From: Octopus vulgaris
Taxonomy: Eukaryota
Direction: 5' to 3'
Length of the DNA: 64,000 bases
NCBI GenBank assembly: GCA_951406725.2
Contig: OX597835.1
Span: forward strand, 11,656,001 to 11,720,000
The notes beneath the pieces were generated by a model that saw nothing but the letters and a program-made list of their open reading frames with translations, ran no database searches and was not told where the DNA came from. Of the stretch, positions 6,786 to 63,163 are shown one piece after another. The translations under genes were made by a program, and so were the position numbers. How positions within the stretch are numbered: the first letter of the stretch is position 1; each line of letters begins with the position of its first letter.

Positions 6786-6833
<48 letters not shown>

Positions 6834-6834
6834 A

Positions 6835-7228
6835 TTTTCTACTCTAGGCACAAGGCCCAACATTTGGGGGGAGGGGGCAGTCCATTAGATCAACCCAGTA
6901 CACAACTGGTACTTAATTCATCGACCAGGAAAGGATGAAAGGAAAGTTGACCTCGGTGGAATTTGAACTCACAACCTAACGACAGACGAAATACCTATTT
7001 CTTTACTACCCACAAGGGGCTAAATACAGAAGGGACAAACAAGGACAGACAAACGGATTAAGTCGATTTTATCGACCCCAGTGCGTAACTGGTACCTATT
7101 TAATCGACCCCGAAGGGATGAAAAGCAAAGTTGACCTCGGCGGAATTTGAACTCAGAACGTATCGGCAGACGAAATACTGTTAAGCTTTTCGCCCGGCGT
7201 GCTAACGTTTCGGCCAGCTCGCCGCCTT
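6835..7228 (-). mobile_element. SINE family B dimer: a young-tail full copy (6996-7228) joined to a headless old-tail copy (6835-6995)
   Basis: The core ATCGACC..GAA.GGATGAAA...AAGTTGACCTCGG occurs twice. The junction GAAATACC|TATTTCTTT is identical to the junction in the 26-27 kb array. Confidence 0.88.
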
Positions 7229-7460: not shown

Positions 7461-7986
7461 TGTCTTTCTCCATTTCTTTCTAATCTGAAACTATTATGTT
7501 TGGTAGCTATTAATCTTTCCCGCTCTCTTTCATGATCACGAAGAAGGAATGTTTCCCGCATATTTTGTTTCCTCTCCCTGTCACTCTCTCTCTCACACAC
7601 CCAAACACTCTCTCGCCTTCTCAGCTTCTCTCCCAATTCTCTCCCTCTCTCTTTCTCTCTCTTACACACACACACACACACATCCTGTTTCTCTTTCACA
7701 CAAACATATCGTCTCAAGCAGTAAGGGTCAATAACGCGACCCACGAAAAAGAGAACAGACCCCCAATAAGCATAACATAACGAGGCCAGACATTAACGAA
7801 TGTCAACGATACTCTGATAAAAGAGGAAACAGACTCTTAAGTCAATGTCGCCAATCGATATTAAAGAATAAAAGAATAAACAAATGAAGGAACAAAGGAA
7901 TATATATATACGTCTATTCGAGAGAGAAGGATAACAACCGCTACAGTAAACACTAGTGGAAAAGAGCCAGATTAAAATAATAATAA

Positions 7987-8214
7987 TCCTTTCTACTTTA
8001 GGCACAAGGCCTGGAATTTGATAGGAGGGGACTAGTCCAGTACATCGACCCCAGTGCTCAGCTTGTACTTATTTTATCGACCCCTTCCCCCCCCCCCGAA
8101 AGCATGAAAGGCAAAGTCGACCTCAGCGGAATTTGAATTCAGAACGTAAAGACTGCCGAAGCTCTGCTAAGCATTTCATCCGGCGTGCTAACGAGTTTGC
8201 CAGCTCGCCACCTT
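7987..8214 (-). mobile_element. SINE family B, old-tail subfamily
   Basis: Same head and core as other B copies. The sense tail GGCCTTGTGCCTAAAGTAGAAAGG is followed by (ATT)n. Confidence 0.85.
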
Positions 8215-25577: not shown

Positions 25578-25780
25578 TTGTGTGTCTGTGTTTGTCCCCC
25601 TAGCATTGCTTGACAACCGATGCTGGTGTGTTTACGTCCCCGTCACCTAGCGGTTCGGCAAAAGAGACCGATAGAATAAGTACTGGGCTTACAAAGAATA
25701 AGTCCCAGGTGTCGATTTGCTCGACTAAAGGCGGTGCTCCAGCATGGCCGCAGTCAAATGACTGAAACAAGTAAAAGAGT
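25367..25780 (+). mobile_element. tRNA-derived SINE, family C, with an internal (TA)n(TG)n microsatellite
   Basis: A-box TGGCTGTGTGG and B-box GGTTCAGTCCC, ending in a GTAAAAGA tail. Multiple homologs in the window. Confidence 0.92.
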
Positions 25781-25986
25781 ATAGCATTTCCAACACGAAT
25801 ATAGAAGAGTAGTACGGCTCTATCTGTTAGAATTTTGTCTCAGTGATAAAACACCTAGAACTCTCTAGAAGGTCATTGGTAAATCACCAGATTCTGTGAT
25901 TCGCCGACGGCATTCCGAACGAGTCTCTCTGGGGCAAATTACTGCACGTTTTTATATGAATTATAAACACATCATTATTGAATAAC

Positions 25987-27503
25987 TATTTCTTTATTAC
26001 CCACAAGGGGCTAAACATAGAGGGGACAAACAAGGACAGACATAGTATTAAGTCGATTACATCGACCCCAGTGCGTAACTCGTGCTTAATTTATCGACCC
26101 CGAAAGGATGGAAGGCAAAGTCGACCTCGACGGAATTTGAACCCACAACGTAACGGCAGATGAAATACCTATTTCTTTATTACCCACAAGGGGCTAAACA
26201 TAGAGGGGACAAACAATGACAGACATAGGTATTAAGTCGATTACATCGACCCCAGTGCGTAACTGGTACTTAATTTATCGACCCCGAAAGAATGAAAGGC
26301 AAAGTCGACCTCGACGGAATTTGAACTCACAACGTAACGGCAGATAAAATACCTATTTCTTTATTACCCACAAGGGGCTAAACATAGAGGGGACAAACAA
26401 GGACAGATATAGGTATTAAGTCGATTACATCGACTCCAGTGCGTGACTCGTGCTTAATTTATCGACCCCGAAAGGATGGAAGGCAAAGTCGACCTCGACG
26501 GAATTTGAACTCACAACGTAACGGCAGATGAAATACCTATTTCTTTATTACCCACAAGGGGCTAAATATAGAGGGGAAAACAAGGACAGACATAGGTATT
26601 AAGTCGATTACATCGACCCCAGTGCGTAACTGGTACTTAATTTATCGACCCCGAAAGAATGAAAGGCAAAGTCCACCTCGACGGAATTTGAACTCACAAC
26701 GTAACGGCAGATGAAATACCTATTTCTTTATTACCCACAAGGGGCTAAACATAGAGGGGACAAACAAGGACAGACATAGGTATTAAGTCGATTACATCGA
26801 CCCCAGTGCGTAACTGGTACTTAATTTATCGACCCCGAAAGGATGAAAGGCAAAGTCGACCTCGACGGAATTTGAACTCACAACGTAACGGCAGATGAAA
26901 TACCTATTTCTTTATTACCCACAAGGGGCTAAACACAGAGGGGACAAACAAGGACAGATATAGGTATTAAGTCGATGACATCGACCCCAGTGCGTAACTG
27001 GTACTTAATTTATCGACCCCGAAAGAATGAAAGGCAAAGTCTACCTCGACGGAATTTGAACTCACAACGTAACGGCAGATGAAATACCTATTTCTTTATT
27101 ACCCACAAGGGGCTAAACATAGAGGGGACTAATAAAGACAGACATAGGTATTAAGTCGATTACATCGACCCCAGTGCGTAACTGGTACTTAATTTATCGA
27201 CTCCGAAAGAATGAAAGGCAAAGTCGACCTCGACGGAATTTGAACTCACAACGTAACGGCAGATGAAATACCTATTTCTTTATTACCCACAAGGGGCTAA
27301 ACACAGAGGGGACAAACAAGGACAGACATAGGTATTAAGTCGATTACATCGACCCCAGTGCGTAACTGGTACTTAATTTATCGACCCCGAAAGGATGAAA
27401 GGCAAAGTCGACCTCGACGGAATTTGAACTCACAACGTAGCGGCAGATGAAATACCGCTAGGTATTTGGACCGGCGTGTTAACGTTTCTGCCAGGTCACC
27501 GTT
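25987..27503 (-). repeat. Tandem array of 8 SINE-B-derived units (period 183-184 bp); only the last unit carries the head
   Basis: Unit starts at 25987, 26170, 26354, 26538, 26721, 26905, 27089 and 27273. Flanked by the direct repeat ATTATTGAATAAC at 25974-25986 and 27504-27516. Confidence 0.95.
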
Positions 27504-27635
27504 ATTATTGAATAACGTTTACATCACTTTACACCATGACTATACTTTTGTTCATTCTTGTTCTTTTAATTCGTCTTTCATCACTTCTTCTTTCCATGTT
27601 GAAATCATTTCAATCGTATCATCTATTTGCGTTTG

Positions 27636-28024
27636 TGGAGGCGCAATGGCCCAGTGGTTAGGGCAGCGGACTCGCGGTCGTAGGATCGCGGTTTCGATTC
27701 CAAGACCGGGTTTTGTGAGTGTTTATTGAGCGAAAACACCTAAAAGCTCCACGAGGCTCCGGCAGGGGATGGTGGTAATCCCTGCTGTACTCTTTCGCCA
27801 CAACTTTCTCTCACTCTTACTTCCTGTTTCTGTTGTACCTGTATTTCAAAGGGCCGGCCTTGTCACTCTCTGTGTTACGCTGAATATCCCCGAGAACTAC
27901 GTTAAGGGTACACGTGTCTGTGGAGTGCTCAGCCACTTACACGTTAATTTCACGAGCAGGCTGTTCCGTTGATCGGGTCAACCGGAACCCTCATCGTCGT
28001 AATCGACGGAGTGCTTCCATCACC
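27636..28024 (+). mobile_element. tRNA-derived SINE, family A
   Basis: Homolog of 2766-3151. TSD ATTTGCGTTTG at 27625-27635 and 28025-28035. Confidence 0.93.
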
Positions 28025-31501: not shown

Positions 31502-31647
31502 TATAGAATAAGAGATAAAGGTTTTGATGTGATGTTAGAAGAATTGAAATAAAGAGTAGTAATAATCAAAGTAAAACTGGAAAGATATGACAACAGAAAA
31601 AGACAGTACAGGCAAAAAAGATTGTTTAAAGCAAATCAGAAGAAACC

Positions 31648-31870
31648 TATTTCTTTATTACCCACAAGGGGCTAAACACAGAGGGGACAAACAAGGACAG
31701 GCATAGGTATTAAGTGGATTACACCGACCCCAGTGCGTAACTGGTACTTAATTTATCGACCCCGAAAGGATGAAAGGCAAAGTCGACCTCGGCGGAATTT
31801 GAACTCAGAACGTAGCGGAAGACGAAATATCGCTTAGCATTTCGCCCGGCGTGCTAACGTTTCTGCCAGC
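31648..31870 (-). mobile_element. SINE family B, young-tail copy
   Basis: 21-bp TSD TAAAGCAAATCAGAAGAAACC at 31627-31647 and 31871-31891. Confidence 0.95.
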
Positions 31871-32385
31871 TAAAGCAAATCAGAAGAAACCGTTTCAGGA
31901 ATTAGATGGGCAAATACACGTAACAAGGGTACCAGATGCAGAGGATGCATAAATGGTCTGGCTTCAACAGTGCACGTATTCAATAAGGATATCGGGATGG
32001 AATTTGGGATTAAAAAGCTTGGCATGCTTAACATACAAAGGCCAACTAATGTCATCTGATAGTGAAGGACTATCCAATGGTGAGAAAATCAAGTATGTTG
32101 AGACGGATGGATATAAGTATCAGGGTATTTATTTTGGGGGTATGACAAAAGTCAAGGAGAGTGAGATAAAGGAAAGCTTTGAACTTACATCAGAAGAAAC
32201 AAATTAATTACAGAAATTTGGACTCAATGGAAAGAATAAGAGCAGGGCAGTGAATACAGGGGCTGTTTTCTGAAAGGGATACGGTGCAGGTGGTGTTAAG
32301 TAAACAAAGAACGGGATTGAAGAAATGAATAGAAAAACCGGGAAAGTGATGACAGTGAACAAATCCTAAAATCGATATCGATAGG

Positions 32386-32800
32386 CTAGATGTGGTTTTG
32401 TGATCTGAAAAGACCAAGAAAATGATCTTGATTGAGCTTACAGTCCCATGGGAAGTGGTGTGATCAGGACGACGAATTGAAGAGTGCCAAGTATGAGAGG
32501 ATTGCAGGGAGAAAGGATTGCATTTACGGCTTTTCCTAGTCGAGGCTGGCTGCAGGGGGTTCCTTGTTCACTCGGCATGGAGGATGCTTACAGCCATTGA
32601 AATGAGTGGAAAGGAGATGAGGGTGGCTGTGTACAGGATGGGTGAGGTAGCTGAAAGAGTCTCTGCTTGGTTATGTAGCAAGAACGAGGAGTTAAGCTGG
32701 AAACCAAGAAGTGATGCGGTGCAGTCATTTGCCCACCTCTGCTGATCCACCAACGGAAGGGTATTACGGTTCAGGGTTGAAACACCCGCTGAATACTCAA
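32386..32800 (+). pseudogene. Hero-like RLE retrotransposon 3' fragment
   Basis: DVVL*SEKTKKMILIELTVPWE and VEAGCRGF...EVAERVSAWL resemble Hero-clade endonuclease motifs (IELTVPWE, VEVGCRGF, AE.AS.W). Confidence 0.7.
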
Positions 32801-32804
32801 TACC

Positions 32805-33038
32805 TATTTCTTTATTACCCACAAGGGGCTAAACATAGAGAAACAAACAAGGACAGACATAGGTATTAAGTCGATTACATCGACCCCAGTGCGTAACTGG
32901 TACTTAATTTATCGACCCCGAAAGGATGAAAGGCAAAGTTGACCTCGGCGGAATTTGAACTCACAACGTAACGGCAGACGAAATACCGCGAAGCATTTCG
33001 CCCGGCGTGCTAACGTTTCTGCCTGCTCGCCGCCTTCC
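32805..33038 (-). mobile_element. SINE family B, young-tail full-length copy
   Basis: TSD AATACTCAATACC at 32792-32804 and 33039-33051. Sense head AGGCGGCGAGCAGGCAGAAACG with B-box GAGTTCAAATTCC. The central GCCTTTCATCCTTTCGGGGTCGATAAATTAAGTACCAG resembles the MetaSINE domain as I recall it. Confidence 0.95.
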
Positions 33039-33267
33039 AATACTCAATACCGTCTGTTGAAATCAGTTCCTCCAGGCTAAAGTTCCTTTCACTTTGGTGA
33101 GTGGAAGAAGCACCTTCTTTTACGTGTTATTAACATATACATATGTATATGTATGTATGTATTTATGTACGTATGTGTTTGCGCGTATGTGTGTGTGTAC
33201 GTATGTATGTAGTTTATGTGTCTGTATGAATGTAATGAATGTATGTATACATGTATGCACGCATATA

Positions 33268-48724: not shown

Positions 48725-49640
48725 TTGTAGTTTAAACTCAGAGCTGAGGCCATGCTGGAGCACCGACGTTTTGCTACACTGGCAGCAAATATGTGGCACG
48801 TGGTGAAGAATGGAGTTTCATGTAGCCACCCTCATTTGCACCTCTTGCCGTGAGGTAGGTTCATCCAGGACACTCGACAGGAAGAGGCTCAGCCTCGATT
48901 TAAAAACACCTACATCTACTTAGTGCAGGTTTCACGGGCTCTTTGGGAGAATATTAAAAAGCTGTGGGCCCCTGAAACCCAGGCTGTTGCAGTAACTGGT
49001 CTTGAAGCGCGATGGCATTGCTGGGATTTTTGGCACTGTGCAGTGTTGACTCGTTCTGGCATTGGTGTAGCTGTCAGTGCCAAAATTTGGTACAATTCCT
49101 TCCAGGATCTTCCAGATGTATATTACTGCATAGCTCTCCCACCTTCGCTCCAGGGAGTAGAGTCTTAACTGTTTCAGCCTTTCCCAGTAAGTGAGCTGTT
49201 GGAAAGAGATGATCTTTATGAAGCTTCACTGAATTGCTTCAAGGTCCGCTGTTAATTTTACATTTTTGGGTAACCATAGCTGGGAGCAGTAATCCAGGCG
49301 GCTGAGGACGAATGTCCTCCAGAGGTCCATCAAGGATTCCTTATCTCTGGTTCTGAATGTTCTCTGGATCCATGCAGCCATTCGTCTGCACTTTGTCGCC
49401 ATCCTGGTAATGTGCACTTGGAAAAACGTATCGTCACTCATGTCGATACCCAGGTCCCTCATTGCTTTAGGCTCTGGGATTGTAATTCCCTGTGGACCAG
49501 TGGACCCTGTAAGTTTAATATTCAGTTTTGGACGCTGGTAGCGCAGGGCTTGGAATTTTTCAGCATTGAACCGCATATTATTATCCTTAGGCCATCTGAA
49601 AATTGAGTCCAACTCCTGCTGCAGATGTGCAAACGTCGCT
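48725..49640 (-). pseudogene. 5'-truncated CR1/L2/Jockey-group LINE (RT C-terminus plus 3' end)
   Basis: LQQELDSIFRWPKDNNMRFNAEKF, RDLGI, IQRTFRTRD, LSRLDYCSQLW and LEAIQ are typical of the CR1-group RT thumb region. Confidence 0.88.
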
Positions 49641-50319
49641 GGAGTTCTGTATTTTCTGTGAGACATCCGTATCGTCTGCGTAGCTAGCAAGGGCGGCCAT
49701 CCGGGCGTGTTCATTATTCTTATATTATTATCTCACCCTTGCAATTATAGCCCCATGGAGTTCATCGAGATCGAGGCTGTTATAATGGCTATGTTTTGTG
49801 TTTGCGGGCACGGGCGCTTTAATGATTGCATCCAATAAGCGGTTCTTCTGTGAATTATTTCAAATTAAGTTGAGTAGGTTCCATTTAGTAATATTGGTGG
49901 AATGTCAAATAAGGCATGTATGCATTGAATTTTGCGGACCTGTTGTTAGGTAAATAAGTAAATAAGATTTTTAATATGCGTTGTGGCAGCTATCAGTTAT
50001 AAATTGTGATGAAAACTAGATTCAGGATGGTGAGTGACGATAGAAATGTTTTACAAATGACAACATACGGAAATAAAGAATTGGTATAAAATAAAATAAT
50101 GCATAATGGATAGCAGAAATATAAAGCAAAATGAGAATAAATATAAAAATATCAGAACGTAAAAACGTGAATACGAACATACATGATAATACCTGATAGA
50201 CGGCTATATGAGTAAATGTATTAAAAATCTTGTATATTAAAAAGAATAATAATAAATATTTAAAATATATATTAAAAATATGTGTATAAAATAAATATTA
50301 CATATATATATGTATAAAA

Positions 50320-52485: not shown

Positions 52486-52564
52486 GACTTTAGGTTCAGT
52501 TGAGACGGCTGTGTGATGTTGCTGGAGATTGTCATCAATCCCTGTTGTTGCTGGTACAACGCCC

Positions 52565-52732
52565 GCAATTTATAAGGGCGTTGTACATCGACCCTAGAGC
52601 TAGAACGAAACTTATCTTATCGACCTTGAAGTGATGCAATACGATGTCGACCTCGACGGAATTTTGACTTCAGTATATAACAACTGCAAAATTTGTCCCA
52701 TGCGCTAAAACTTCTGCCACCTCGTCGCTTGA
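52565..52732 (-). mobile_element. Diverged SINE family B
   Basis: ACATCGACCCT, TATCGACC and GTCGACCTCGACGGAATTT motifs plus head remnant. Confidence 0.65.
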
Positions 52733-52756: not shown

Positions 52757-53195
52757 ATCCTTTCTATTATAGGTCCAAAGATTAGTTGATTACATCGATA
52801 CCAGTGCGCAAGCAGCATTTATTTCATCGACCCCGAAAGGAGGGTGAAATGCAACGCCGATGTTAGTGGATCTTGAACTCAAAACGTAAAGATGGATGAA
52901 TTACCAATTTCATTACTACCCACAAGGGGCTAAACACAGAGAGGACAAACAAGGACAAACACACGGGTTAAGTCGATTATATCGACCCCAGTGTTTCACT
53001 GGTACTTAATTTATCGACCCCGAAAGGATGAAAGGCAAAGTCGACCTCGGCGGAATTTGAACCCAGAACGTAACGGCAGGCGAAATACGGCTACGCATTT
53101 CGTCCAGCGTGCTAACGTTTCTGCCAGCTCGCCGCCTTGACGGATGAATTACCGTTAAGCATTTTCTCCGGTGTGGCAACGAGTCAGCTAACTTG
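52757..53195 (-). mobile_element. Old SINE B (52757-52905 plus 53139-53195) with a young SINE B (52906-53138) nested inside it
   Basis: TSD GAYGGATGAATTACC at 52891-52905 and 53139-53153; the old head continues after the TSD. Confidence 0.9.
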
Positions 53196-53211
53196 CTTCC
53201 TTAACATCAAC

Positions 53212-56799: not shown

Positions 56800-57082
56800 C
56801 AATTCTTTTTTATTGGCCACAAGGGCTGACACGCATGATTACATAAAGGGACAGGACAGGACGAAAGGTTACAAAGGGTTTTGTCCGTTTGTTAAAAAAT
56901 CCGTGTAAAAAAAAACTTTAAAACAATGATTATTAAAACAATGAAAAACTCCCAAAAGGGGGAGACGTCTCGAAATGTTCCCGGTGGAAAAAACCCTACA
57001 AAAGCCAACGGGAGCCTGGTCAAAAAAAGGGGGTGTAGAGAGTCCCCTTTCTTCTCCTTTTACATTACCTTTTTCTTTGAAA

Positions 57083-60000
57083 TCACAGGCGAAACCTGAG
57101 AACTGGTCCATTTATACAGGCCAGTCTCGCACAATTCACCCACCTTTCATAAAACTTGCTATCGGACAGCACTTTCCTCTCTAACCTCATCTTCCTTTTC
57201 AAGTGAAACTTGAAAAAGTTGATGAGGCCTTGACCAAAGAGGAAAGTGTCTGTCTTTAGCCCTTTCAAACGAGTCCACCACACGACCTCTTTCGCCACAG
57301 CCACTAGGCACAAGAAAACGGCCTCGCCCTCCTTGTTAAAGGAGGTCGGCGGGGCAATCTTCACTATGGATTCGGCCGATAGTCGGATCCGTCCTACACG
57401 TGACAGTAGCTGTTCGACATAAACCCATATTTCAGCAATACTCGGGCACTGGACGAGTGCGTGCAGAACGGTTTCGTCGTCCTGGCAACACCTCGGGCAG
57501 GCCCGGCTGACGGCACTTCCGTGCCGGTAGAGTTTATCTCGAACAGGCAGAGCCCCTCGGTAGCACTGCCAGGCGAGAGACCTCTGGAAATTATCCATCG
57601 GCCCCGGCCCGAAAGTCCTCCCGAACAGACCTGCTCAGTTCGTCGTCTTCAACGCCTAGAGTTTCCCCGAGAACGTCGTCGCATTTTTCCTCCACTAACC
57701 CTCTATAGAACGCTAGAGTGGAGCTGTAACCGACCGCATTGCCCGCCTGGTGGAGGGCGGAGAGGGCTTGACGGCACTCGAGGTGCCAAGCGCCCTTTCT
57801 CGGTCTACGTTTGATCCAGGTCTGCAGCTCCGTCAAAGAGACGAGCTGCGGAAAATCGCGTCTGACAAAAGACGACCACACCTGTTCACCGTCTAGGAAG
57901 CGCTTGAGATGCCGCAGCCTGAGCGCATGTCTGCGCAACAGCAACCACGGCATTCCAAGGCCTCCGTTCAGCGGTCGTTGACAGCAGATGGATCGCCTGA
58001 CCAGTGGCACCTGACCCTTCCACAAAAAGTCGAAGAGCAGACGTACCAGCTTGGCCAACCAGCGGTCGGGACAAGGGACGACGGTCAAGCGGTAATAGAT
58101 GACGGATGCGATGTACGCATTCGCCACCTCCGCTCGACCTTTCAGGGACAGCTTCCTCTCGGCCCATTTCTGGGTGAGACGTGCCACCCTGCTCGTCACC
58201 TCTTCCCAGTTCTTATCCACCTGGAGGTCCGGACCGAACCAGACCCCGAGCAGTTTAACGGGTCCGTCTGTCCAGCGCCCTACGACGCTGTTGGACGGCA
58301 TGGGCTTGCCTCTCCAGGTGCCCAGTTGCAAGCCCACAGACTTTTCCGCGTTAATCTTTGCCCCTGTCACCGCTTCGTACTGGTTTAGCGTCTCGCCAAT
58401 CAGGCCAATGTGCCTGTGGCTCGACACCACCACGGTGACGTCGTCGGCATAAGCAGACACGCTGTTTCCGCCTCCTAGATCGCGCGGGATGCCCCTCAAA
58501 GCCTCCAACTTGCGCAGTAATGGCTCGAGAGTCAAAATGTACAAGAGGGAGGAGAGAGGGCATCCTTGGCGGACCGAACGCGAGATGTCGAACGGTTCCG
58601 AAAGGTGACCGTTCACCCGTATCACCGAGCAGATGTTGCTGTATAAAGCAGCGATCCACCCGCGGAAGACTGGACCGAAGCCGGCTGCCTTGAGGACAGC
58701 TGCCAGGTACCGATGGTCGACCCTATCGAAGGCTTTACTCTGATCCAAGTTGATCAAAGCCCCACCCGCGCCAGCGTCGTTACCCACCCTCTCTATGATG
58801 TAGCGCATGAGATGGAGGTTGTCGTGTATCGACCTGGTCGGCACGGCGCATGTCTGCGTCCCGCCGACCAGCTTGTCCACGACAAGCGCCAATCTCTTGG
58901 CTAGCACCTTGGCCAAAATCTTCAACTCTGCATTGAGCAGAGTGATGGGCCGGAAATTGCCTATAACGTCCCCCTTGTTTGGGTCCTTCTTTAGCAAAGC
59001 CACCACCCCTCGACAGACAAAAGCAGGAATTCTCCCGTTTTGCTGCCAGTTGCAGTAGACGTTTGCCAACAGGTCCGCAAACAAGTCTGGCATTGAAAAG
59101 TAAAGCTCGTAGGGCAGACCATCCAAACCCGGCGATCTACCTCTCGTGCAACTCTTCATCGCTTCCTGTACTTCCCAGGCAGATATCGGTCCTTCGCAGC
59201 ACTCTGCCTCGCTGTCCGAGAGTTGCGGCAGTCCGTCCAGGTACACACCGAAGTCTGTACCGTTGGTGTCCGTTCCACCGCTCGTCCCAAACAGTTGAGC
59301 AAAGTGCCGCTGAAGTACCGTACACATCTGCTTCGGTTGGGTAACCTCGCGCCCGTTCTGGTCCACCAAAGACCGAATGGTTGCTCTGTTGCCTCGCTTC
59401 GCCTCCGCCACGCGGGCCCATCGAGCGGCTCTAGTCCCCTCCCCGCTTAGCGAACGTGCCTTAGCTCTGACAACGCAGCCTTCGTGTTTGGCGTCGAAGT
59501 GTTGGTCGAGGGCCAACCTTGCCGCCAACACGTCGGTCGCGATGCCAGTGTCAAGAGCCTCGTCTAGTTTCTTAACTAAATCCCGCTCTCTCTTCCTACG
59601 TTCAATAGCTAGAGTCTTACTATACCTAATCGACTCTACTCTAATTGCTCTCTTGAGGGCAAACCACCAGTTGTTGTTGATGATTGCCCCCGTGAGCGCC
59701 CGCTTAACTAGTAAACTAATCCGGTCTCTGTAAGCTTTGCACGCCGTTAACGACGCGTTCAGCTTCCAGTAGCCGGGTCCCTGTCTATGTAGCCTATCTA
59801 AGTCGACCGTACAGATCACTAATTTGTGGTCCGTATATTCGACTAGGTGGAATTGTGGACACCCTACGCTGTCCTTATCCGCTGGCCTACAAAACACTCT
59901 ATCTAAGTACGATCTAGACGACCCGATGCGGTTTGTCCAAGTCCACATTGGCACATTCGGGTTGTCTAGTCGAAACCTGTCGGACAGCTGAAAGCGGCCG

Positions 60001-60518
60001 AGTAGGTTGGCGAGGCTCTTGCACCCTCCCCCTCTCCTAACAGACGCTCCCCTGCCCACCCGATCGAAACGTTCGTCTAAGACAGCGTTCCAATCCCCAA
60101 CTAGTACTAGAGTGCGTGACGTTCCCAGGAAAACTTCCAGACGTTTGAAATAATCCGACTGCCCTGCTCCTGTCGGAGCGTAGGCAGCCAGCAGTCTGAA
60201 AGCACCGCCGTCACTACCGTCCACGTCGAGGACCACCAACTTACCTTCCGGATCCAAGAAGACTGTCCTTATTTTCAGGTCCAGGCCCTTCCGAAACAAC
60301 ACCGCAGTACCACCACCGCCCGCTCCCGGCCGACACGGAGATAGAAATATCTCGTATCCGCCGAAAAGGGCTGCGAGTTCCTGCGGGTCGGAGAGCCTGG
60401 TTTCACTGATGGCTGCTACATCCACATCATGAAACCTCAGGTCGTTTAACAGGTGACCCTGTTTCCAAGGTGACCCGAGGCCTCTCACATTCAAGCAACC
60501 GATTCTAAGATTTGCCAT
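57083..60518 (-). CDS. ORF2: APE endonuclease, reverse transcriptase and C-terminal CCHC zinc finger, with one +1 frameshift near 57635 (~1144 aa if corrected)
   Basis: APE motifs CLNVRGL, ISET, YAP, GDWN, YLDR and TDH. RT motifs SPGLDG, FRPITLLN, KAFDRVDH, RQGCPLS and YADD. L1/Tx1-type GPGYWKLN and W..RKLS.KGR. CPRC-x8-H-x4-C lies in the downstream frame 57083-57598. Confidence 0.95.
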
Positions 60519-60556
60519 GTCTCAAAGTAGGGGGAAAAAAAGGGAGAAAAAAGGCT

Positions 60557-61363
60557 CTACTTACTGTTGTTGGTGGTGGGGGTGGCTCCCTTGTGCTTTT
60601 GCACGGGTGCTTCCACAATGTTTTTATAAAGTTTCTTCGAGAAACTTTTCCCTAGCGATCCCACATCGTTAGGGAATATTTGTTTGATTTCATCATATGA
60701 TTTTGCATTTATTTTTATTGTGAGAATGTGTGCTGGTGGTGTGTTTTGTGTTGGTATGATGAAATCGGTTATATTTGTACTAGTTTTGTTTTTTAAGTAC
60801 TCCACTAGTTTTTGGTTCTTTGTGTTTATTGATGTAATTGTGTCTGTGTGTGTTTGTGTGTGTGGCAGTGGCAGTAGTGGTGTCGAAAGTGTTGTTGTTG
60901 TTTGTTGTTGTGAGTGTGTGTTGTTGTTGTTGTTGTTGTTGATGTTGGGAAGCACTATTTGTTCGTGCTTCCCCTGTAAATCTTTTTGTTTCTTCCTCCT
61001 TTTCTTCTTTGGAGGCACTATACTCCATTCTCCTTTGTTGGAATCAGAGCTCGCACAATCCGAGATCTCTTCATCCGGCAAAGGAATGGTTGAGGGTCTG
61101 CTTCAGTAGCAGGACGAAAAGTTTCTGGTTCCACCGGTATCGGTGGTGCCGCTGCTCCTGTTACTGTTGATGTCGCTGCTGTCGACCTTCGAGGTACTGG
61201 TGTCGGTGTTGGTTTGGTGGTGGTTGTCGGTGTTGGTTTGGTGGTGGTTGTTGTTGTTGGAGGTGGTGTTGCTCGTCTTGGTGCTGGTGTTGGTGATGGT
61301 GTTGGTGGTGTGGCAGCCTTTGGTGTTTCTTGCTGTTTTTGTTGTTTCTGTTGTTGTTGCTTG

Positions 61364-61403
<40 letters not shown>

Positions 61404-62426
61404 GCTGCTGCCTCTTGCTGAAAGCCTCCATCCTCTTTTTGTGAATGGGACAGTCCCTCTTTAAGTGGCTTTCGCTGCTGCAGAGAAAGCATTTTGGCTT
61501 TCGCCCCTCCACAGCAACGTTTAGCCTAGTGCCGTCCGGCAAACTTACGAAATCAGGGACTTTACTTATATTCTCTTGCTGAATTTGCGCAAGAAGCAGC
61601 ACTCCCATCCCCAACCAGTTTTTCGCCCTCACTCTCCTGACATCTAGAATGGTGGTAGTGTCCTCTATATCATAGAGGACAGCTGCCACCAGCCATGACA
61701 TATTTAATTCAGGGGGGACGAGGTCGATTTTTATTTTTGTAACTCTTCGCCCGAGGTGGGTTGGAATTAGTAACAAATTCTCAGTTTGCAAGGGCGAAAT
61801 GGCGTTCGCCCTTGCCAGCTCCTCTGTTGGGAAGCGAACCTCCACGGTTCCAAAACGCTTCCCCTTGGTTACGTAGCTCTTTTGGGCCCAAATGGGCTTT
61901 AGAGCTATCTCCAACTGTTGGGGTGTGGCATTTGTTATTCTTTTTAGTTTTCTGTCGAAAACTTTGTAAATTATTGTTTGCTTGTTGGTGCTTTCAATCA
62001 CCTCTTGTGGAGTATTGAGGAAGATACCATTGCCATCCTTTCTTAACAATTCCTTCGCTCTTTTCACATCTTCTAGAGTTATTTTAACTTCCTCCGAAAT
62101 TTGCTTCGCAGCAGAAGCAAAATTGTTGGAAGTTTTTTCTTTTATCTCCGTGTCAATGTTTGTGATGATTTTTGTATTTGTTTTTTCTCCTCCTCCTTCC
62201 TTACCAAAGCATTGGGTGAAGGCAGAGGGGGAAAATCAAGAATTACGTCGAACGCGACGTCATGACTTGCATTTTCCTTTTGAACCGAGCGCGTGCTCTG
62301 CGGTTCGGAAGGAGAATCTTTGTTGCCTTTTAAGGCGTGAAGTGGGTGTTTTGTACGAGTTGTGCGTGTTTGCGGAGGGAGTGTATTTTGAAGGAAGGAA
62401 CAGCCAACTGTTCGCTTCATAGCCAT
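60557..62426 (-). CDS. ORF1: gag-like nucleic-acid-binding protein with CCHC knuckle, poly-Q and Pro/Thr tract; two frameshifts (~62150-62190 and ~61090)
   Basis: CFLCSSESHLKRDC knuckle in 61018-62067. The adjoining frames 62142-62426 (ATG start, DFPPLPSP) and 60557-61081 (W..VPPKKKRR) look like its N- and C-terminal parts, which is an inference. Confidence 0.8.
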
Positions 62427-62658
62427 GTTTTTTCTTGTTGTAATATTCAAAATGTTGAAAAATGTCAAATGTTCAAAATTTTCAAACGCAATTTCACCCC
62501 GAATGGGGCAAAATTTCGCCCAACCGACGAGCTCCGCAAGAAGCCGGTCGGTTTGGCTACAGAAATATTAAAAAATATTCAAACCTATTAATAGATTTCC
62601 AATGAAATTGGTGTCAAATTCACGGAGCTGATTCACGTACGTCTAACGGCGTCGGAAG

Positions 62659-63163
<505 letters not shown>

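Follow-up and report, generated by a model that had tools for sequence, protein, structure and literature searches.

A younger SINE sits inside an older SINE of a sister family in the 64,000-nucleotide stretch of octopus DNA analysed here (the window), enclosed by a 15-bp target site duplication (TSD). It landed at base 49/50 of the host, and we consider it probable that it was directed there by the endonuclease of a Tx1-type partner LINE, one that prefers an (A/G)C|GGTATT-like site present in the head these SINEs have in common. The parts of the nested structure are the following.

52906 to 53138, minus strand: the insert, a younger full-length SINE with a B-type tail, 233 bp
52891 to 52905, minus strand: TSD copy at the 3′ end of the insert
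53139 to 53153, minus strand: TSD copy at the 5′ end of the insert, equal to host positions 50 to 64
53139 to 53202, minus strand: 5′ part of the older host SINE, with its head, a degenerate A-box-like motif (53180 to 53190) and the target site
52757 to 52905, minus strand: 3′ part of the older host SINE, with a B-box motif (52869 to 52878), body and A-type tail

The nested insertion had been proposed in an earlier note on this DNA, and it is real. The TSD copies match over 15 bp with one mismatch of the CpG-decay type, 12 bp being exact. In the window, 15-mers with at most one mismatch at a spacing of 240 to 256 occur at 30 of 805,137 non-simple position pairs, a count that takes in true repeats. 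Removing the insert and one TSD copy in silico leaves a host colinear with the family head, cut at base 49/50, between the A-box-like motif (positions 13 to 23) and the B-box motif (positions 77 to 86) of that head. Over head and body, the insert agrees with the majority of the other copies at 157/168 positions (93.5%) and the host at 126/168 (75%). The upper end of the structure is not 53195, as the host starts at about 53202. The identification of the host as a SINE B was mistaken. The host lacks the B tail and ends in the sister (A-type) tail seen in the copy at 7986 to 8214. Starting 28 bases past this tail is a very decayed copy of the same SINE superfamily (52553 to 52728, minus strand), an old head-to-tail neighbour.

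An alignment of 10 copies shows a common head and body (positions 1 to 168) followed by one of two tails. The B tail is carried by the insert, two dispersed copies, the first part of a dimer and an array, and the A-type tail by the nested host and the second part of the dimer. Since both hosts are A-tailed, both SINE-in-SINE cases in the window are cases of B in a sister family. The SINE is short (about 232 bp), non-coding and dispersed, with 23 nhmmer hits in the window. Its copies have TSDs of varying length (13, 13, 15 and 20 bp), as is characteristic of tRNA-derived SINEs, and a Pol III internal B box lies at position 77 in 4 of the 5 copies scanned; an A-box-like motif was found at family position 13, with a loose pattern, in 4/5 as well. 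Searches for a tRNA-type head gave no Rfam match at gathering score in the window and none at E≤10 on one copy, and ARAGORN made no call. Ohshima and Okada reportedly described the octopus tRNA-derived SINEs OR1 and OR2 in 1994; those and the present family appear alike in being tRNA-type octopus SINEs.

The A-type tails have a CCTTGTG core in common with the B tail and with the end of a LINE in the window, and one of them lies between ATC/ATT repeats. Both SINE tails may derive from related LINEs with different targets. Nearly all nhmmer matches of the SINE superfamily (22/23) are on the minus strand, as is the LINE. Counted as separate loci, about 13 of 14 are on that strand (nominal p about 0.002), a skew that is possibly an orientation bias inside a long intron.

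The insertion site is best understood from where B copies end. All 5 independent B events in the window, which was picked for this feature, end at G[GT]T[AT][AT][TC]; the sequences after the B tails are GGTAAT, GGTATT, GGTTTC, GTTATT and GGTATT. TSDs are present in 4/5 events (15, 13, 20 and 13 bp), each beginning with the motif, and the base pair ahead of the upstream TSD copy is AC in all four. Because the motif is duplicated on the 5′ side in these four events, it belongs to the target. We rejected the reading in which GGTATT is a part of the SINE tail, since it recurs upstream and changes from flank to flank. At base 49/50 the sequence of the family head is GC|GGTATTTC, one instance of the motif. 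Two of the five events, the nested copy and the dimer, are in SINE heads. The other three, namely the array as a whole and the two dispersed copies listed here, are in non-SINE DNA.

31648 to 31871, minus strand: dispersed B copy in non-SINE DNA, with a 20-bp TSD (31872 to 31891 and 31628 to 31647) from the target motif
32805 to 33036, minus strand: dispersed B copy in non-SINE DNA, with a 13-bp TSD (33039 to 33051 and 32792 to 32804) from the target motif

The preference is likely for a motif, of which the family head happens to contain one. The earlier note read the nested copy as evidence of self-targeting. That claim survives in part: one preferred head base is used again in the nested copy, the dimer, the array and public contigs. 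With 3/5 B events at look-alike motifs outside SINEs, however, self-targeting looks like a by-product of the motif preference. The flanks are the target repeat in 2/5 events in the window, to be set, with only five events, against the threshold of more than 20% in one sequence type used by Kojima. Three of the five B heads (copies 7228, 31871 and 53138; positions 48 to 51) are already mutated at their own target motif, and the cut of the motif spans a CpG; decay of the motif may remove targets over time.

An unlikely alternative is that SINEs are targeted in their own right, the endonuclease or RNA-DNA homology reading a longer stretch of the head or a hairpin, so that heads would be the primary safe harbour and non-SINE sites off-target; of the readings considered, this one comes nearest to the earlier note. 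The two events in heads speak for such targeting, and under motif-only choice the probability of at least two in five is 0.001 to 0.25, depending on how the motif is defined and how many head sites are assumed; these values are post hoc, which counts against it. In 4/5 folded heads the site also falls within the 3′ arm of a predicted hairpin, and joints of the B tail to base 50 recur in contigs. Against this, the three events in non-SINE DNA have flanks with only weak DNA hairpins (-0.6 to -1.1 kcal/mol), and folding of the heads does not stand out clearly from that of shuffled sequence (z -1.96 to +0.36). On these same figures a hairpin was rejected as a target requirement.

Chance would require that one random insertion, into a repeat of very high abundance, fell by coincidence on a recombination junction. 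SINEs do make up 11.6% of the O. vulgaris assembly according to an excerpt of PMC13282606, and the window holds a single TSD-flanked nested case. However, the same base is used at three separate loci and the same motif in 5/5 events, and the junction recurs in contigs under two organism labels. The shared motif largely refutes chance, which we regard as highly improbable.

Two other structures in the window have junctions at the same base.

6831 to 7228, minus strand: the dimer, a full B copy (7228 to 6996) joined at base 50 to an A-tailed body (6995 to 6831)
25987 to 27501, minus strand: the array, one head and 8 units of 184 bp, each from base 50

The dimer joint (6996|6995) falls at the same head base as the nested cut, and all 7 internal array junctions join at base 49/50. 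The nested copy, the dimer and the array therefore have one site in common, between the A and B boxes, as the earlier note had it. No TSD was found around the B part of the dimer. A single 13-bp TSD (27504 to 27516 and 25974 to 25986) encloses the whole array. Its 8 units have two changes in common, one of them CpG-type, that are missing from the 4 dispersed copies compared, so the array comes from one template. Mean differences are 6.1 within the array and 8.5 to 22.6 to dispersed copies. We therefore reject the view that the array is a stack of independent insertions. Units 6 and 8 have three further changes in common, which points to at least one later DNA-level duplication or conversion. 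The array may have been seeded by a self-insertion dimer, by a microhomology duplication running from base 50 to the downstream TSD, or by a single-event concatemer. Beside the array, at 27640 to 27800 and 25700 to 25790 (both minus strand), are by appearance a second tRNA-like SINE and another dispersed repeat.

The array gives some weight to the view that dimers and arrays need no second insertion, and arise by microhomology tandem duplication or by re-priming at a cDNA end within one retrotransposition; the nested copy would then be the only real case of a SINE entered by insertion. The motif is present twice in every B copy, at base 50 and, in the copy's own TSD, directly after the tail, and the one TSD around the array, the two private changes of its units and their closeness to one another all fit. 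The dimer does not, as duplication of one copy cannot join a B tail to an A-tailed body, and several contig joints run on into diverged head sequence. As an account of all these structures this view is doubtful; it can hold for the array while motif-directed insertion holds elsewhere.

The junction of the B tail to base 50 recurs beyond the window, as shown by public contigs and reads. The dispersed B copy at 32805 to 33036 was the reference, and two raw-read runs (X21 and X22, with 25 and 230 reads placed, of 12.9 million reads each) and two contig sets (X1 and X14) were aligned to it. The joints described are the best 15 of 654, and some joints were not counted. Seven of these 15 involve the B tail end, and 5/7 are compatible with a tail-to-base-50 junction. 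The exact junction, in one row, has the highest X1 depth among the best 15 of 654 joints (17 X1 contigs, 1 X14 contig, 1 X21 read and 2 X22 reads). Four more rows would fit, resuming at positions 66 to 76 after a stretch of unaligned letters (54 X1 and 4 X14 contigs). The last two of the seven (33020 to 32805 and 33020 to 32811) resume at SINE position 17, near the A box (7 X1 and 13 X14 contigs), and possibly reflect AGAAA microhomology or a second site. Among the best 15 joints, X14 has 13 contigs in this class and 5 in the base-50 class.

In 12 rows the letters between the two sides of the joint can be read, and 7 of them end at the motif; in 5 the head sequence carries on in register to within 1 nt, and 2 fall short of the expected length. 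The remaining 8 of the best 15 joints are A-type body ends or internal skips, not assignable to a class, and the best 15 of 654 include no full-length nested 5′ junction. Depth past the tail into GGTATT is about 41 times (X1) and 9.5 times (X14) the random-flank expectation, figures that are rough and inflated by arrays. One joint (33035 to 32798) consists of the B tail, 15 bases beginning with the motif and then a new head, that is, tandems sandwiching the TSD, comparable to SINEU-3. In X22, 55 reads stop at each of two loose ends (32799 and 32857), in a run that placed only 230 reads and is not representative. These ends suggest a satellite of about 79 bases, made of 13 bases of the site and the last roughly 66 bases of B, and a tandem of this kind is what amplification of a truncated insertion between its own TSDs would be expected to give. 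No pile-up of starts or ends was reported for X21 and X22, with 25 and 230 reads only. Scanning metagenome contigs for a B tail pattern gave 0 stretches, as did scanning viral contigs for the junction.

The window also contains a LINE that bears on the identity of the partner.

56801 to 62660, minus strand: L1/Tx1-type LINE in an (ATT)n tract, near-full-length, 5′ boundary approximate
61018 to 62235, minus strand: LINE ORF1, with a CCHC knuckle
57591 to 60521, minus strand: LINE ORF2, endonuclease-reverse transcriptase
57083 to 57634, minus strand: LINE zf-RVT, in another frame

ORF1 and ORF2 are long and open, with a frame break before the zf-RVT domain; the domains found are Exo_endo_phos, RVT_1 and zf-RVT. 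The element belongs to the L1 superfamily, with an APE endonuclease and a reverse transcriptase in ORF2, and among solved structures human L1 ORF2p matches best (E 1.8e-51), with R2 behind it (E 2.3e-22). We take it to be Tx1-type from its CCHC ORF1, its zf-RVT domain and its insertion in a microsatellite. ORF1 shares 92% identity with a protein named from Octopus sinensis, which by itself makes Octopus the probable genus, and matches proteins annotated as uncharacterized Octopus genes. A cluster look-up of ORF2 relatives came back without a name in 4/4 cases. A further reverse transcriptase-like ORF fragment of another LINE, judged by eye, lies at 49226 to 49732 (minus strand).

When the last 62 bases of the LINE were compared with the B tail, anchored at the end, 0 of 3000 shuffles reached the score, for 4/4 B tails; unanchored, the result was weak, as 21 of 2000 did. 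For three A-type tails the anchored comparison gave 0, 33 and 119 of 3000. Since one A-type tail also gave 0/3000, likeness to the LINE is not peculiar to B. As the LINE sits in (ATT)n and not at the B motif, it can be no more than a relative of the partner, and probably is one. The partner LINE is likely the source of the motif preference. In none of 80 LINE-related loci, which are mostly 23 to 39% identical to the query and reach 53% at most, over a few short segments, did blastn match the SINE or the LINE 3′ UTR, and the searched tail motif had zero occurrences in the supplement of PMC13282606. Excerpts of published work describe L1-Tx1 families as recently active in O. vulgaris (PMC13282606) and Tx1-clade elements as often choosing targets, other mobile elements included, through their endonuclease (PMC4494074).

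In the mechanism we favor, a relative of this LINE would carry out target-primed reverse transcription of the SINE, with the site preference set by its endonuclease. A head-body-body dimer would arise where the new cDNA is joined, upstream, to the nearly identical head of the host, or alternatively by later recombination between the two heads. Local unequal exchange could then expand dimers into 184-bp arrays. It is likely that the landing-site preference seeds tandem arrays.

The earlier note also proposed a self-limiting loop, in which each insertion disrupts the promoter of the older copy. In the nested host the A- and B-box motifs are pushed apart by an extra 248 bp; this host is old, with TTTT ahead of its B box, and the insert carries its own boxes. 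In the head-body-body form of the dimer and array, the spacing from A box to B box is normal. Because these products keep both boxes, the loop is unsupported, and we have dropped it, as nothing in the sequence points to promoter loss. The arrangement of boxes suggests instead that insertions of this kind could exchange one tail for another while the promoter in front stays intact. Carried further, the most abundant SINE superfamily of the host might offer, in its heads, a landing pad dedicated to the B SINE and its Tx1-type partner, where insertion at base 50 with a homology-resolved 5′ junction would put the B body and tail behind the intact promoter of a sister family. We offer this as speculation that is more apt to prove wrong than right by a wide measure. 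If true, it would amount to built-in tail-swapping, explain common heads with different tails, and seed SINE satellites of fixed boundary.

The principle is not new, since self-insertion hotspots and SINEs that target other mobile elements have both been described. We found no description of this octopus site preference in the openly accessible literature searched. A close parallel to the nested copy is human Alu, which inserts into Alu at a single-nucleotide hotspot (Levy, Schwartz and Ast, PMC2836564). As excerpted, that work describes sense insertion at one base of the element's own family, at a suboptimal endonuclease site inside the element, much as we propose here. Alu is 7SL-derived, uses L1, and has its hotspot after the A-rich linker (PMC2836564, same excerpts). 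In contrast, the octopus site is a GC|GGTATT motif between A- and B-box motifs and coincides with array junctions, and the octopus SINE has a LINE-like tail without poly(A).

SINEU-3 and Tx1-Mar LINEs, which insert into Mariner-N4_AMi, and Tx1L, which inserts into Tx1D, offer a second parallel (Kojima 2015, PMC4494074). In the excerpted parts of that paper, a SINE inherits a Tx1-clade preference, its target is a mobile element, and tandems sandwich the TSD. The target of SINEU-3 is an unrelated DNA transposon, accounting for 90% of copies (PMC4494074, likewise in excerpt), whereas in octopus the target is part of the head of the SINE itself and of sister families, with 3/5 events off-repeat.

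Tandem arrays of SINE sequence are known as SINE-derived satellites in squamates (Vassetzky et al. 2023, PMC10702118) and as tandem SINE arrays in bivalves (PMC11481361). In the passages drawn from these two papers, units begin in the 3′ part of the head and take in box B (Squam3 positions 42 to 108), unequal recombination is invoked, also between TSDs, and no target-site cause is given for the unit boundary. The octopus unit differs in reaching the very 3′ end, and its junction is the insertion motif. Should a genome-wide peak hold at this base, nested copies, dimers and SINE satellites of fixed boundary would all be traceable to one preference, in a genome made up of SINEs to about a tenth. 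The preference would also supply a testable cause for the start points of SINE satellites such as these, and for the exchange of modules between SINE families.
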